This document shows positions 9,420 through 43,428 of a stretch of DNA of 64,000 nt, in pieces (position 1 is the stretch's first letter; each line of letters opens with the position of its first letter). The stretch lies in NCBI RefSeq assembly GCF_055900595.2, contig NZ_CM148325.1, one strand, 5' to 3'. The notes beneath the pieces were generated by a model. It saw nothing but the letters and a program-made list of their open reading frames with translations, ran no database searches and was not told the origin of the DNA. The translations under genes were made by a program, and so were the position numbers.

Positions 9420-10095
9420 CAAATGCGCCTGTAAGGCTCTGTTACCAGCCGCGCCCTAACAGGCGCATACGATCTGACATTTGCATTCAACTTCGTTACT
9501 TACGGCCCGTAAACGGGCTGCCCGGATATGGAATCGATAACTGCTCCCCCATTTTATCCTCTTCAAGCTGGTGCTTTATGTAGTCCTGTATCTTCGCCGT
9601 GTTCTTACCCACCGTATCGACATAGTACCCTCGGCACCAGAACTCCCTGTTTCTGTATTTGAATTTCAAATCCCCAAACTGCTCGTAAAGCATCAGACTG
9701 CTTTTCCCTTTCAGATATCCCATAAAGCCGGATACGCTCATTTTGGGTGGGATTTCCACAAGCATATGGATATGATCTGCGCAGCACTCTGCTTCCAGAA
9801 TCCGTACGCTTTTCCACTCACACAGCTTTCTCAAAATACTGCCTATCGCCCTACGCTTCTCTCCGTAAAACGCCAGTCTTCGGTATTTCGGCGCAAAAAC
9901 TATGTGATATTTACAGTTCCAGCGGGTGTGCGCTAAGCTCTTTTCGTCCCCCATTGGGACCCCCTTTTGATTTCTTGTTTGACACTTGCAGTTGCCAGAC
10001 CGCAAGGTGTTTTAACAAATCAAAAGGGGTTTTAATAACTGGCTCAAAGCTGAAAGCTTTCCGGAACCCCCAGCCTAGCTGGGGGTTTTCTGTGC
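9420..10095 (-). mobile_element. IS200 insertion sequence (IS200/IS605 family); boundaries approximate
   Basis: Contains an IS200-type tnpA. The upstream end carries a GC hairpin (CCCCCAGCCTAGCTGGGGG at 10066-10085) and a long imperfect palindrome at 9961-10030 that would occlude the tnpA RBS, as described for IS200. Exact termini could not be fixed by eye. Confidence 0.7.
9496..9954 (-). CDS. tnpA: IS200 transposase TnpA (Y1/HUH transposase)
   Basis: 152-aa product MGDEKSLAHTRWNCKYHIVFAPKYRR ... with the HUH motif (HIHML) and catalytic Tyr region typical of IS200 TnpA. The track ORF extends 17 codons upstream. Confidence 0.9.
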   Translation of the reverse strand: MGDEKSLAHTRWNCKYHIVFAPKYRRLAFYGEKRRAIGSILRKLCEWKSVRILEAECCADHIHMLVEIPPKMSVSGFMGYLKGKSSLMLYEQFGDLKFKYRNREFWCRGYYVDTVGKNTAKIQDYIKHQLEEDKMGEQLSIPYPGSPFTGRK

Positions 10096-37892: not shown

Positions 37893-39887
37893 TTATTTTT
37901 TAGTCATGAAGGTGACGTCTATTGCCAACTGAAGGGCTGTTTTCTCCGATGTTCCAGGCGGAGGTATATCTGCCGCTCTGTCATTCATATTTAAATCAAG
38001 CTGCCCTGATTGTGTATTTATCTTTCCATTTTCCGTTGCGGTAATATTAAAATTCTTACAGGTTATATTAAATATTCCGTCACTGGTCATTTGCAGGATA
38101 GTTTCTCCGCAGCTAAGAATAATGGAATCTCCCGCAGCAAGGCGTAAATTCTGTACGGCCTGAATCGTTTTATTTCGTCCGGCAAGGGAGGTATCATCCG
38201 TCTGGACTGTTAGAGAACGTTTCTCACCAATAATCGCAGTTTCTGTTTTATCAATGACTTTAAGGCGATTATTGCCCACCCAGTGGCTTTCATTATTATT
38301 TACTTCAATGCGTTGATCTTTCTCGGCATGCAACCAGATTTCTTCTCCGCCAGTTTTATCCTCAAAACGCAAGGCGTTAGCATTGGTCGGGCCGCCGCCG
38401 ATAGTGTGGCTGTAAAACCCGCTTTGCGTCGCTGCGCCCGGTAGTCCCCACGGTGGCATGGTGTCCTGATTGTAGGTACGCCCAACGATTATCGGTAAAT
38501 CCGGATCACCGTTTTTGAAATCCACCAGTACTTCCTGACCAATGCGCGGGATCTGAATGCCACCGAATCCTTTACCCGCCCACGGATAACTGACACGGAC
38601 CCAGCAGGAACTGTTTTCATCATTCTTACCGTAACGATCCCAGCCAAACTGAACTTTCACCCGGCCATATTTATCTGTCCAGATTTCCTGTCCCGTCGGG
38701 CCGGTCACGATGGCGCTCTGCGGGCCTTTAGTATGGGGTTTGCTCAGGGTTCGCTGCGGGCGGTAAACTTCGCTGGTGGGATGCAGTTCAAAGCTGGTTG
38801 AGTAAGAGAAATGCTGCTCCTGGCCGCTGTGTTGCGCATTGTCCTGTATAAATAGCGTGGTCTGAACCAGCAGATATTCCCGGTTCACTTCGGCTGTCGG
38901 ATAGTTTTCCAGGGTGAAGGTAAAACCTGTCATCAGGGTACGAATATTGCCGCTGCCCTGTACCCGACTACCGGGGCTACACTGTTCTTCCATGCGGATG
39001 CGTGTCAGCATTTCACCTTCACTCTTTGTGAAGTAGTCTCCCGGCCATTCGTAGTGCTCATATTCAGCAAGGCCAGTTTCACGCGGATTAGCCACGGTGC
39101 TCTTGAGCAGTGAACGCGGCTTCATAAAGTCGAAATCATTTAGTACCCACTGTCCGCTGCGCAGGCTTTCATTTGCTGTGATGGTATGGATAAATTCCTT
39201 GTCCAGTTTCAGCCCTTTCTGGTAATAACACACCAGTGGCGAATCTGCGCACGCCTTGTGGACATTAATGGCATCAGCCAGCACTAACGTGTGACTGTTC
39301 TCGTTGTGCTCAAACCACCAGTAGATACCCCACTCCTGCATCAGGCGCTGAATAAAATCGAAATCTGTTTCACCGTACTGCACCTGCCAGGCGCGAGTCG
39401 GATAATTTTCCACCAGTCGTTTTTCCACTGGCCAGGGGTACTCATCCAGTACCTCATCCAGGATCTCCACCACGTTTTTATTTTGAAACGCTTTGTAGTC
39501 ACTAGTGTGGGTCAGTATTTTTAACCACGGTTCAATCCGCAGTTCATACACCACCGAACGTCCTTGATGACCAGCCACGCGTGCCGCCGTCACCAGCCCG
39601 CTGATATAACGTTTTCCGCCGCCATCCAATTCGATATTGACGCACAGATCTTTGCCCACCATCGGTTTGAGCTGCAGGTTGGCTGCGGGGGAAACATAGC
39701 CCAGGTTCAGGATGTCAGGAGTTTTTAATTTAATAGAATAAGTAAATAGTTCCCCTACTGTTTCTGTCCCCCCTAAGCTTGCAAACAGTAACATTCCATC
39801 AGGAACTGCGCTGCCGCTCAAAGTCACGTTATGTGTACCCGATCCAGTTAGTGCGCCGGATGGATAATCTGTAGCTGCAAAACTCAT
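37893..39887 (-). CDS. vgrG: type VI secretion system spike protein VgrG
   Basis: 664-aa ORF with gp27/gp5-like features (e.g. [63 protein letters not shown], beta-helical repeats). Directly upstream of eag-rhs. The N-terminus is atypical; start taken as the first ATG after the upstream stop. Confidence 0.85.
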
Positions 39888-40242
39888 AATTAATCCTTTT
39901 AACTAGAAATGGCTAAGTGCTAATAAGAAATCTTACAGAGAATAAAATATGCAATATATTCGTAGCTGGCATAAAACATCTCAATACTTATGCGTGCTAC
40001 TGAAGATACTATCAACCATATATGCCTTGAAGAATGCACCATCATGTTAACCTGGTGGAAACATTCACCTAAAGTACATTAATAAAACCAATAAAATTAT
40101 TTAATCTGTTATTTGATATGATTATCATCAAATCTTAAAATACGTTCCCCGGTTCTAATTATGCTAAAACCATAATATTCTTTTGTACTTCCGGAAGAGA
40201 GCATATATTTCCCGATATACATAACATCTGAAGATAGCTCAC

Positions 40243-40464
40243 TTATGTCAATACATTGGGATCGAACTGACCTGTCACTCTTTTCAATTTTATTGCATTG
40301 CCATATTTACCTTCATATAAAATATAATTTGAAATAATATTCCCATCGTCTGGTTTTGAACAAACCCGCCCGTCTTGTAAATATACATTACCGGGTAACA
40401 ATGGGCGAACATAATCACCAACAGTGCATCCCGATAAAAAGAATAACAAAAAGAATCTCTTCAT
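40243..40464 (-). CDS. small predicted lipoprotein (candidate immunity/inhibitor partner of the upstream HExxH protein)
   Basis: 73-aa ORF with signal peptide and lipobox (MKRFFLLFFLSGC). Start overlaps the upstream gene stop (ATGA). Confidence 0.55.
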   Translation of the reverse strand: MKRFFLLFFLSGCTVGDYVRPLLPGNVYLQDGRVCSKPDDGNIISNYILYEGKYGNAIKLKRVTGQFDPNVLT

Positions 40465-41030
40465 ATGACACCAGCAGGAAATAAATTAAGCACCTTCTTG
40501 TATTTTTCCGATAGAGTATTCACTGATTCTGTTGTATCACCTACATAGTTAACATTTGCCAAATCAGAGACCAATCCATAGTTAATCAATAGCCAATAAT
40601 CAGCAACTATAGATGCTTGTTGTTCCATAGAATAAGAAGAAATTGACTGTAAATTAAGATCGTAATGATAATTTGCCGCCCAGGAAAATAAACCACGCAA
40701 CTTAACTGCATACCCTTTCTGATATTGCCAAACATGCATCGTTTCATGAATAAACAAGTGAGAAGCACCTGCAACTGTTTCACGATCACCAGGCATTGCT
40801 TGCGATGAAAAATCTGAACTATAAACAGCATCAGGATAATACATTTCCCCGTTTGGGGTCATCGCTGTTCTTTCCCCTTGACCAGGCAAATATTTTTCAT
40901 TGTGGATCCATACCTTGCTATAATCAATTGTATTCTCAAAAATCGATCTGGCCAATGTTAATTCACCAGATGTCATTCTCCTTAATGATATATCCTTTCC
41001 CCTGGAAATAATATCTTTCAGATAAAACAC
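40461..41030 (-). CDS. hypothetical HExxH-motif protein (putative zinc metallopeptidase-like toxin/effector)
   Basis: 189-aa ORF containing HETMHVWQ (HExxHxxQ). No signal peptide. Translationally coupled to the downstream lipoprotein and co-directional with vgrG. Family unassigned. Confidence 0.5.
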   Translation of the reverse strand: MFYLKDIISRGKDISLRRMTSGELTLARSIFENTIDYSKVWIHNEKYLPGQGERTAMTPNGEMYYPDAVYSSDFSSQAMPGDRETVAGASHLFIHETMHVWQYQKGYAVKLRGLFSWAANYHYDLNLQSISSYSMEQQASIVADYWLLINYGLVSDLANVNYVGDTTESVNTLSEKYKKVLNLFPAGVI

Positions 41031-41928
41031 AAACGCTCTTTGATGTTCAACATTTCCACTTTATACAGTATTGATGACATCATCTTCATAGAAAATGAAA
41101 TCAAAGTAAGTTATCAACGTTTCCCGTTATGATTTTTTAACCTTAATTCTCAGCATTTTTATTAATCTATCTTCAATATCAATAACCGATGCAAATGATT
41201 ACGCAGTTATCATAACTCCCATCAATTGATTAATATCTGTAAACGCTACCGCCCCACCCTGATATTTTAATCTGCACATAGCAATCTTAACGTTATGCCC
41301 CATACATTAGTAATGTAAATTAAGAATTCGGAATATATCAAATTCACTTCATAAATTAATATCGAGAATGATATACACATTAATTATATTGAAGTCATGT
41401 TTTAAGCGTTGTAATGACCATGGAACAGGACTAATTCCAGAAACTCCTGTCAGGCAATAGCGCGTTTATCACCCTACATGCCTTTTACATTTTTTAGCCT
41501 TTTCTGTAACGTCGGCAACTGGCTCATTTAATCAGCAATTGTATCGGCATTTGGCGTATTACCCCTGAAACCTGCCATGTGCTAGCCCCTCACTATTCAA
41601 TGATCCAACCACGCCAGTGTCCACTGCAACCACTGGCGTTCAGAGCGACGAACGAGTGGCGCAAGAGTAGGACTGCCGTCGGGTATCATCAAACCAATAG
41701 TGGTTGTTTCCGTCATAATTTCATCAGGTTGCTATTTTGTTGCCGGCCGCCTTTATCCCCGCATATTTATAGCGGGATTATTTTGCATCGTTACACGATA
41801 AAAGGTAGGATTCTGCGCCGACAGTTATACCCATAAAGAATAATGGTGAATCTTGTCATCGCCAGGATGAATAAACATTGTTCATGGCAACTTATATGAC
41901 TTTTTCATTAAAGCAATCAGGGAGAGCA

Positions 41929-43428
41929 ATGAGTAAACACGACACCGACACTTCAGATCAACACGCCGCGAAACGCCGCTGGCTTAATGCCCACGAAGAG
42001 GGGTATCACAAAGCGATGGGCAATCGCCAGGTACAGATGATCGCCATCGGCGGCGCGATTGGCACCGGCTTGTTTTTAGGCGCTGGAGCCCGACTGCAAA
42101 TGGCGGGGCCAGCACTGGCATTGGTCTATTTAATCTGCGGCCTGTTTTCATTTTTTATTCTGCGTGCATTGGGTGAGCTGGTGCTACACCGCCCTTCCAG
42201 TGGCAGTTTTGTCTCTTATGCCCGTGAGTTTTTAGGAGAGAAAGCCGCTTACGTTGCAGGCTGGATGTACTTCATTAACTGGGCGATGACCGGGATTGTC
42301 GATATTACCGCCGTCGCGCTGTATATGCATTACTGGGGCGCATTTGGTGGTGTGCCGCAGTGGGTCTTTGCGCTCGCTGCGCTGACCATCGTTGGCACCA
42401 TGAATATGATTGGTGTGAAATGGTTTGCGGAGATGGAGTTCTGGTTTGCGCTTATTAAAGTGCTCGCCATTGTGACCTTTTTGGTCGTGGGTACAGTGTT
42501 CCTCGGTAGTGGTCAGCCGCTGGATGGCAACACCACTGGCTTTCATTTAATCACCGATAATGGCGGCTTCTTCCCCCATGGTTTGCTACCTGCGCTGGTA
42601 TTGATTCAGGGCGTAGTGTTTGCTTTTGCCTCCATTGAAATGGTGGGTACAGCTGCCGGAGAATGTAAAGATCCGCAGACCATGGTGCCTAAAGCGATTA
42701 ACAGTGTGATTTGGCGTATTGGCCTGTTTTACGTCGGCTCCGTGGTGTTGCTGGTTATGTTATTGCCGTGGAGCGCGTATCAGGCGGGGCAAAGTCCGTT
42801 CGTGACGTTTTTCTCTAAACTGGGTGTGCCATATATCGGCAGCATTATGAACATTGTGGTGCTGACCGCTGCCCTCTCCAGCCTGAACTCAGGTCTGTAC
42901 TGCACCGGACGTATTCTGCGCTCAATGGCGATGGGCGGTTCCGCACCGAGTTTTATGGCGAAAATGAGCCGTCAGCATGTGCCGTATGCCGGGATCCTGG
43001 CGACGCTGGTCGTTTATGTTGTTGGCGTATTCCTTAACTATCTGGTGCCGTCTCGCGTATTTGAGATTGTGTTGAACTTCGCGTCGCTGGGAATCATCGC
43101 TTCATGGGCGTTTATCATTGTTTGCCAGATGCGTCTACGTAAAGCGATTAAAGAAGGCAAAGCAGCGGATGTCAGTTTTAAACTCCCAGGTGCGCCCTTT
43201 ACGTCGTGGCTGACATTACTGTTTTTACTGAGCGTCCTGGTGCTGATGGCGTTCGATTACCCGAACGGGACTTATACCATCGCTGCGCTGCCGATTATTG
43301 GCCTTCTGCTGGTAGTAGGTTGGTTTGGTGTACGCAAACGCGTTGCAGAAATACACAGCACTGCGCCAGTCGTCGAGGAAGACGAAGAAAAACAGGAAAT
43401 TGTGTTTAAGCCAGAGACGGCGAGTTAA
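41929..43428 (+). CDS. ansP: L-asparagine permease (APC family)
   Basis: 499-aa product from MSKHDTDTSDQHAAKRRWLNAHEEGYHK with 12 TM segments. The track ORF starts 17 codons upstream. Confidence 0.9.
   Translation: MSKHDTDTSDQHAAKRRWLNAHEEGYHKAMGNRQVQMIAIGGAIGTGLFLGAGARLQMAGPALALVYLICGLFSFFILRALGELVLHRPSSGSFVSYAREFLGEKAAYVAGWMYFINWAMTGIVDITAVALYMHYWGAFGGVPQWVFALAALTIVGTMNMIGVKWFAEMEFWFALIKVLAIVTFLVVGTVFLGSGQPLDGNTTGFHLITDNGGFFPHGLLPALVLIQGVVFAFASIEMVGTAAGECKDPQTMVPKAINSVIWRIGLFYVGSVVLLVMLLPWSAYQAGQSPFVTFFSKLGVPYIGSIMNIVVLTAALSSLNSGLYCTGRILRSMAMGGSAPSFMAKMSRQHVPYAGILATLVVYVVGVFLNYLVPSRVFEIVLNFASLGIIASWAFIIVCQMRLRKAIKEGKAADVSFKLPGAPFTSWLTLLFLLSVLVLMAFDYPNGTYTIAALPIIGLLLVVGWFGVRKRVAEIHSTAPVVEEDEEKQEIVFKPETAS

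Follow-up and report, generated by a model that had tools for sequence, protein, structure and literature searches.

The gap upstream of ansP in an Escherichia coli genome as a probable mosaic junction between a core gene and a type VI secretion auxiliary island, with a candidate ops-bearing leader at its island end

The typical client of RfaH is a long, AT-rich, horizontally acquired operon, and the leaders of rfaQ, wzx/rfb, hly and kps carry a 12-nt ops element that is read on the non-template strand. Here we describe a seemingly empty gap on an Escherichia coli chromosome, positions 41031 to 41928 of a 64,000-nt stretch of contig NZ_CM148325.1 (hereafter the window), which lies between the core gene ansP and an HExxH-immunity-vgrG-DcrB-Rhs operon of a type VI secretion system (T6SS) auxiliary island. 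We put at roughly 75% the probability that this gap is a mosaic junction between ansP and the island rather than a single feature. The anatomy of the gap, its homologies, its pattern of constraint and the sequence, orientation and position of an ops-like site within it are reported here as direct observations of the present analysis; together they leave the gap explained by known processes, namely the decay of a pseudogene where the island meets the core genome, and two ordinary control regions.

The closest described system is found in E. coli CFT073. Its c1882-c1889 (PAAR-vgrG) operon is preceded by an ops site, GGCGGTAGCGTA, at 1715753-1715764, 313 bp upstream of c1882 and beside ansP (c1878) (Hustmyer 2022, mBio, PMC9765446). 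This is one of eight leader ops sites bound by RfaH in chromatin immunoprecipitation sequencing (ChIP-seq; PMC9765446, Data set S2A). The RfaH evidence was obtained in a ∆hns ∆stpA strain, in which a sigma-70 ChIP peak is also present upstream of c1882 (PMC9765446). The ops of kps, GGCGGTAGCATA, is likewise without G at position 12 (G12), and both of these validated sites, kps and c1882, have A12 (PMC9765446). Among the individual bases of ops, RfaH recruitment depends strictly on G4, G5, A7 and G8 and about threefold on C3 and T6, and pausing requires T11; the G12C substitution abolishes the pause and leaves RfaH recruitment in vitro (Zuber 2018, PMC5995543). The element lies at 27-135 nt in the rfaQ, wzx and hly transcripts (PMC9765446), and functional ops sites have also been reported in the Sci1 T6SS cluster of enteroaggregative E. 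coli (preprint 10.1101/2025.02.08.637259). In K-12, an RpoD holoenzyme peak and H-NS binding were located in the yncH-rhsE spacer by genomic SELEX (systematic evolution of ligands by exponential enrichment; Shimada 2014, PMC3946193). Literature searches for ansP with yncG, or for ansP with vgrG and Rhs, returned nothing useful.

The gap region of the window, which is from E. coli, is 100% identical to strain Z0117EC0005 (NZ_CP098223), and the PGAP placement in that genome puts the start of ansP (+ strand) at 41929. The HExxH open reading frame (ORF) on the other side can start at a GTG at 41030, at the PGAP start at 40991 or at the first ATG at 40976, so the gap measures 898, 937 or 952 bp; its K-12 equivalent, the yncG-ansP spacer, has 266 bp. 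A sequence-only reading of this DNA had noted an unusually long, AT-rich non-coding stretch upstream of ansP with no convincing ORF. The length is real and there is no credible gene inside. The AT-richness holds for the left ~370 bp (29.7% GC in 41031-41400) and fails for the remainder (44.3% in 41401-41928); the gap as a whole has 38.3% GC compared with 49.8% for the window. The 85-aa ORF singled out earlier as of poor coding character (41579-41836, + strand) is antisense to a yncG remnant and frameshifted in three of ten haplotypes. A 39-aa ORF on the opposite strand (41597-41716, -), labelled 'glutathione S-transferase' by PGAP (WP_072000954.1), is broken in some haplotypes: it is frameshifted in L004 and L008 and lengthened by a 12-bp insertion in L009. 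It has no match in Pfam or NCBIfam.

Searched against 5426 complete E. coli genomes, the parts of the gap are distributed as nested sets. Segment 41774-41928 is found in 5405 genomes (megablast), with ~90.5% identity to K-12; 41257-41928 or 41400-41790 in about 786; and 41031-41260 in only 229. We aligned ten haplotypes of the HExxH-ansP interval and counted variable sites in the eight full-length ones. An element at 41243-41392 (- strand) is variable at 9 of its 150 sites (6%), as compared to 35/150 in its left flank (41093-41242) and 43/149 in its right flank (41393-41542); for 9/150 versus 78/299 in the two flanks, Fisher's test gives p = 7e-8. The sequence upstream of ansP (41781-41928) varies at 12 of 148 sites (8%). 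Outside these two blocks 20-29% of sites are variable, the yncG remnant (50/244) being near the neutral rate; in ansP itself the third, first and second codon positions vary at 73/200 (36%), 7/200 and 0/200, respectively. The variable-site profile thus resolves the gap into two constrained blocks that occupy its ends and face outward, and the DNA between them evolves at a near neutral rate.

Sensitive pairwise blastn against K-12 yields four aligned pieces: 41729-41928 matches the ansP-proximal 200 bp (82.8% identity), 41605-41735 matches yncG codons ~57-100 (67%), 41490-41589 matches yncG codons ~168-200 (66%), and 41240-41384 matches the segment between the truncated rhsE and yncH (73%). The fast-evolving spacer at 41393-41489 (pairwise divergence 10-12%) has no blastn match to K-12, which has ~620 bp, yncH included, at this position. 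In strain CUWW06 (L004, 4283-4980) an IS1B is inserted in the spacer, between the ops element and the yncG remnant, at the equivalent of 41460.

What the window shares with the K-12 yncG-ansP spacer is the homologous ansP-proximal ~200 bp. The sequence immediately upstream of ansP (41781..41928, + strand) is conserved across E. coli genomes, with weaker K-12 homology reaching back to 41729, and is an ordinary ansP upstream region, putatively promoter plus 5' untranslated region, with a Shine-Dalgarno GGGAGAG at 41920-41926. The last ~150-200 bp would serve as the normal rightward control region of ansP. Had other strains carried an ordinary ansP regulatory sequence of equal length, the earlier observation would have fallen; they do not, as only these last ~150-200 bp are the common ansP region.

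The middle of the gap holds what is left of yncG (- strand). With K-12 YncG as the query, tblastn recovers residues 59-100 at 41606-41731 (42 aa, 57% identity, E = 1e-10) and residues 175-200 at 41492-41569 (26 aa, 50% identity, E = 4e-4, with a stop inside), both in the same frame. The middle fragment of the pseudogene, 41605..41735, covers residues ~57-100 and contains the 39-aa ORF; the C-terminal fragment, 41490..41589, covers residues ~168-200 and has an in-frame stop. Relative to K-12, the remnant is without the first ~57 codons and ~64 bp upstream of them, codons ~101-167 are replaced by 15 bp (41590-41604), and ~520 bp including yncH are also gone from this lineage. The YncG similarity stands at the syntenic position beside ansP and in the K-12 orientation, whereas the intact 205-aa frame is absent: stops, two large deletions and a missing N-terminus have destroyed it. 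The internal stop is common to all ten haplotypes and the remnant is also present in E. whittamii, which makes the pseudogene an old one. Its DNA is only 65-69% identical to every full-length E. coli yncG allele, whereas these alleles are 92.6-96.3% identical to each other. No closer intact relative was found: a 44-aa conceptual peptide compared with 5.8 billion proteins matched only the cluster of the 39-aa remnant ORF. Identity to K-12 is 83% in the ansP upstream region and 94% in the 5' part of ansP, and taken with the 65-69% of the remnant these values mean that divergence climbs steeply toward the island. The remnant may be either an ancient pseudogene or a foreign allele.

The earlier suggestion of gene remnants in the gap was therefore sound, given two in-frame yncG fragments with stop codons and two large deletions. 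The history attached to it, insertion of an island at a junction where K-12 has yncG, does not stand: K-12 and other strains themselves hold the island, or the wreck of rhsE, at this place, with intact yncH and yncG between it and ansP. In this lineage yncH and most of yncG have simply been lost. The spacer and the two yncG fragments would then be neutral debris between two control regions.

The control region at the island end is the constrained ~150-bp element, 41243..41392 (- strand), which comprises a promoter-like region and an ops-bearing leader and reads toward the HExxH-immunity-vgrG-DcrB-Rhs operon. The conserved ops-bearing leader is the most informative part of the gap, and the earlier reading had overlooked it. 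A candidate ops-like RfaH-loading site, 5'-GGCGGTAGCGTT-3' (41242..41253, read from 41253 to 41242), is carried by the operon's non-template strand, with the annotated HExxH start 262 nt downstream of it. It matches 11 of the 12 positions of the ops consensus GGCGGTAGCGTG: positions 1-11 are intact, with all of the RfaH-contact and hairpin bases (C3, G4, G5, T6, A7 and G8) as well as T11 in place, and position 12 is T. The exact 11-mer GGCGGTAGCGT occurs once in the 64 kb, with 0.01 occurrences expected. The site is in sense orientation, no conserved ORF covers it, and the promoter candidates lie 50-70 nt upstream. Directly upstream of it is a conserved block (41254..41293, - strand; AACGTTAAGATtGCTATGTGCAGAT...TATCAGGGTGG) with the spacing of JUMPstart and no JUMPstart hairpin; downstream, a variable, HExxH-cassette-specific, putatively untranslated leader with 30% GC (40992..41241, - strand) runs from ops to the first gene. 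Read on the operon sense strand, the invariant core is ...ATGTGCAGAT-N5-TATCAGGGTGG GGCGGTAGCGTT. The ops core is invariant in all 17 variants collected, including that of Superficieibacter; every window-type haplotype has T at position 12, where K-12, CFT073 and the cusS copies have A.

By alignment, the CFT073 ops site is homologous to the window block. The two loci share the same junction (ansP, yncG debris, vgrG island), a homologous ~60-nt block with the ops core GGCGGTAGCGT in the same orientation and without G12, a long, putatively untranslated leader (313 nt there, 262 nt in the window) and AT-rich surroundings that are H-NS-bound in CFT073 and, presumably, in the window. They differ in position 12 (A in CFT073, T in the window), in the first gene (a PAAR protein there, a VgrG2b-like HExxH effector here) and in the state of yncG, which is full-length and frameshifted in CFT073 whereas the window has two highly diverged fragments. 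RfaH binding was measured in CFT073, whereas the window site is known from its sequence. The ops-bearing leader is in this sense a T12, HExxH-cassette instance of a kind already shown at the same CFT073 junction. A second ops-like sequence, GGCGGTAGTTTA, is present in the same CFT073 island (L021 13031-13042, + strand, ~NC_004431.1 1726030), beyond the second vgrG and an M35 peptidase gene; it is absent from the published list of 42 sites.

The element is far more widespread than the HExxH cassette. Homologues with ~74% identity occur in 4614 of the 5426 genomes, and the median genome has them in two places. The second lies ~340 bp upstream of a cusS-linked orphan vgrG-DcrB-Rhs island, in the same orientation to vgrG, as seen in B, O157:H7, LR-28 and CFSAN061768. 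In strain 405 a K-12-type copy stands upstream of an intact vgrG-Rhs island at the ansP locus, followed by yncH, yncG and ansP. K-12 has the vgrG leader in full, with 88.7% identity to the LR-28 cusS copy, directly against the 5'-truncated rhsE. From these positions we conclude that vgrG/Rhs auxiliary islands have the element as their upstream, outer end. In the window the HExxH and immunity cassette starts directly after ...GGTAGCGT; the K-12 and cusS loci have another proximal leader. A contig scan with TATCAGGGTGGRGCGGTAGC hit only three species representatives, E. whittamii, Escherichia sp. E1V33 and Superficieibacter electus, the last of which, a member of another genus, also has the conserved block upstream of ops. 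That the element is so widely shared by E. coli vgrG/Rhs islands extends the CFT073 work modestly and brings no new mechanism.

Several copies are of interest in their own right. K-12 BW25113 (L002, 3526-3537, - strand) has kept GGCGGTAGCGTA and the complete vgrG-type leader upstream of the rhsE pseudogene; this rhsE-linked ops is additional to the two operons with RfaH recruitment in K-12 according to PMC9765446. In Superficieibacter electus (L015, 3858-3915, - strand) the same ~60-nt block, GCGTTAAAAT...GTGCAGAT...TATCAGGGTGGGGCGGTAGCGTA, has a 193-aa ORF on one side and several consecutive small ORFs, which have no Pfam match, on the other; there is no vgrG within the fetched 11.5 kb. In wlxctx60 (L020, 3702-4013, - strand) an ops GGCGGTAGCGTA beside an intact yncG heads six small hypothetical genes, with no vgrG island.

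The operon that the element faces could be transcribed from one or both of two overlapping sigma-70 promoter candidates at 41312..41341 (- strand), with a predicted start at ~41305-41325. A consensus scan gives TTGATA (41341-41336), an 18-bp spacer and TACATT (41317-41312) as the first; the second is an extended -10, TGaTATATT, with the TG at 41340-41339 and the hexamer at 41337-41332. Among the 11 variants scanned, the -10 column reads TATATT in the window type and a perfect TATAAT in CFT073; in the cusS-locus, K-12 and strain-405 copies it reads TAAATT by alignment, and of these only strain 405 gives a scan match. Either candidate places ops 50-70 nt into the transcript, inside the 27-135 nt span known from rfaQ, wzx and hly. 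The exact promoter of the operon is accordingly a prediction from sequence, as is the pair of divergent promoters that had been suggested for the gap: with two constrained blocks at its opposite ends facing outward they are plausible. We found no fit by eye to CRP, FNR, Fur or sigma-54 sites, a point on which we can only infer.

We propose that the ~150-bp constrained element would drive the opposite-strand operon as follows. A sigma-70 promoter at ~41312-41341 would start transcription and, judging from the CFT073 and K-12 data, is expected to be silenced by H-NS in this strain. Some 50-70 nt downstream, RNA polymerase would expose GGCGGTAGCGTT on the non-template strand, RfaH would load at this ops, and it would then carry the polymerase through the 250-nt untranslated leader and on through the H-NS-coated, Rho-sensitive operon. 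The scheme supposes that an ops with T12 still works, which we infer.

A number of observations weigh against this interpretation of the gap. The G at position 12, part of the TG pause dinucleotide, is missing from the site, and no validated RfaH target with T12 was found in the cited RfaH literature. The promoter assignment is ambiguous, as the two candidates overlap and K-12-type copies score poorly for one of them; on the + strand, the ansP upstream region has no consensus sigma-70 match, and the scan did not locate the ansP promoter. The immunity gene of the operon is frameshifted in this strain, and the operon may therefore be decaying. Finally, the Rfam JUMPstart model (RF01707) has no match in 41190-41350 at E<=10. 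The model has a gathering threshold of 35 bits and scores 60 bits for wzx and 55 for rfaQ; the window neither reaches the threshold nor has the CUGG...CCAG stem of the classical JUMPstart leaders, from which it further differs by T12 instead of G. However, hlyC (17.6 bits) and hcp-tssH (17.8) also fail the threshold and yet bind RfaH, and CFT073 c1882 scores 19.7. With wzx the window has in common a CAGG just before ops and an interval of 26-27 nt between an xxGTGC motif and ops. Given the Rfam scores, we describe the element as an ops leader without the JUMPstart hairpin.

The departure of T12 from the TG dinucleotide of classical targets and the frameshifted immunity gene would also be expected if everything in the gap except the ansP promoter were inert, H-NS-coated junk, with the ops match a relic and the block conserved through recent spread. 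The many lineages in which the element or island has been destroyed, by ISEc1 in ST131-like (sequence type 131-like) genomes, by a deletion in E2348/69 and by truncation of rhsE in K-12, point the same way. We nevertheless regard this as unlikely. In the same haplotypes, variable sites are four to five times rarer in the block than in either flank, and a recent sweep would not yield a constrained block between hypervariable flanks. Loci with no more than ~74% identity moreover share an unchanged ops core, as does another genus, and the homologous CFT073 site, likewise without G12, binds RfaH.

Less probable still, and in our view quite improbable, is that the block serves as a recombination anchor at the island end and that homologous exchange of vgrG/Rhs cassettes, rather than selection on transcription, has kept its copies alike. 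It is true that at both chromosomal loci the block always marks the outer edge of the vgrG islands, and that ...GGTAGCGT is directly followed by one or another cassette (HExxH, PAAR, or vgrG itself). But with only ~74% identity between the two loci, the block makes a poor recombination substrate, and conservation peaks exactly on the bases known to contact RfaH. Recombination is possible as a side role, which would be compatible with the regulatory one.

A small RNA had also been suggested for the gap, and nothing here bears it out. Rfam returned no relevant family for the region at either E<=1 or E<=10 (one chance snoRNA match, E = 0.23), a terminator scan returned 0 terminator-like sites, alifold on nine variants gave -4.95 kcal/mol with a positive (unfavourable) covariation term, and the leader RNA folds no better than shuffles (z = -0.86); the region thus has neither a known family, nor a promoter with a terminator, nor a conserved structure that would mark a small regulatory RNA gene. 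That the block encodes such an RNA, a small protein or a leader peptide, for instance the MCR..YQGGAVA(Y/F) ORF over ops, is highly improbable: although 16 of 17 variants, that of Superficieibacter among them, have an ATG 15 nt upstream of TATCAGGG, and the cusS substitutions GGG>GGA and GCG>GCA are synonymous in that frame, the ORF ranges from 15 to 39 aa with unrelated tails, has a poor Shine-Dalgarno and loses its ATG in E. whittamii despite conserved DNA, and we rejected the peptide (MCRxxYQGGAVAY) as merely the translation of the conserved ops block.

The operon that the proposed ops leader would serve is co-oriented on the - strand from ~40991 to 31233, ~9.8 kb, and is AT-rich, with 33% GC over 39888-41400. 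Its first gene (40461..40991, -) encodes a 176-aa HExxH metallopeptidase effector that matches PDB 6H56, 'Effector domain of Pseudomonas aeruginosa VgrG2b', in phmmer (E = 1.6e-19), and for which Pfam and NCBIfam return nothing significant. This protein is encoded by a free-standing gene upstream of vgrG and is annotated by PGAP as 'hypothetical' or 'type IV secretion protein Rhs'. It is followed by the frameshifted putative immunity lipoprotein gene (40109-40464, -), whose match to NF045617 ('putative T6SS immunity periplasmic lipoprotein') falls short of the curated cut-off; other strains, FHI_NMBU_03 among them, have an intact copy of 118 aa. If the operon were expressed, it would be unusual for an effector to stand without working immunity. 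Next come vgrG (37893-39887, -, from the PGAP annotation), a DcrB-related protein, a 1541-aa Rhs and a small hypothetical protein, and the operon ends with an orphan Rhs fragment with a putative toxin and a SUKH-4 immunity protein. Elsewhere in the window Rfam finds, above the gathering threshold, the Hfq-binding small RNA STnc490 (9964-10087, -, 146 bits) and the selenocysteine insertion element SECIS_3 (14100-14158, -, 84 bits).

The routes by which the element has been lost are also visible. In about 550 genomes with the yncG remnant and without the HExxH cassette, ISEc1 (ydcC) abuts the element between TATCAGGG and ops; an example is the ST131-like NZ_CP124436 (L003, 4862-5040), at the equivalent of 41257. 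In these genomes the ops site and the entire island are gone and the promoter-side half of the element is left; ISEc1 cuts exactly between leader and ops. In the E2348/69-derived EPEC1 (L005, NZ_LT903847) a ~140-bp deletion, equivalent to 41146-41284, removes ops and part of the leader; this strain keeps the HExxH and immunity genes beside a truncated vgrG.

For annotation, the outcome is that a seemingly empty ~0.9-kb gap holds a pseudogene, the ansP control region and the probable control region of a T6SS toxin operon, and that PGAP calls the yncG pseudogene inconsistently, as in the 39-aa 'glutathione S-transferase'. More tentatively, and with less confidence than we place in the mosaic junction, the ops leader may define a distinct and very widespread subclass of RfaH-loading sites dedicated to orphan vgrG/Rhs toxin islands. 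Such a subclass may be marked by its presence in ~85% of E. coli genomes, at the ansP and cusS loci, at the K-12 rhsE wreck and in another genus, and by never having G12 and having no JUMPstart hairpin. The conserved palindrome that precedes it, GAATTTgatAAATTC, overlaps the -10 and could bind an island-specific regulator; in the window the palindrome reads GAATTTGATATATTC from 41346 to 41332. Were the subclass true, the silence of orphan vgrG-Rhs islands would come down to RfaH, together with a regulator at the palindrome, as the missing factor. In enterohaemorrhagic E. coli, VgrG1 and RhsF were undetected after a swap of the vgrG1 promoter, in a study that leaves RfaH unmentioned (PMC13141884), and this is a result that the subclass could explain.

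The comparison extends a single-strain ChIP-seq observation, that of CFT073 c1882, to a conserved and selectively constrained element that lies upstream of vgrG/Rhs auxiliary islands at two loci across most E. coli. It predicts that vgrG/Rhs antibacterial toxin operons would depend on RfaH antitermination plus relief of H-NS silencing, and such a dependence on RfaH bears on the silence of these islands in the laboratory.

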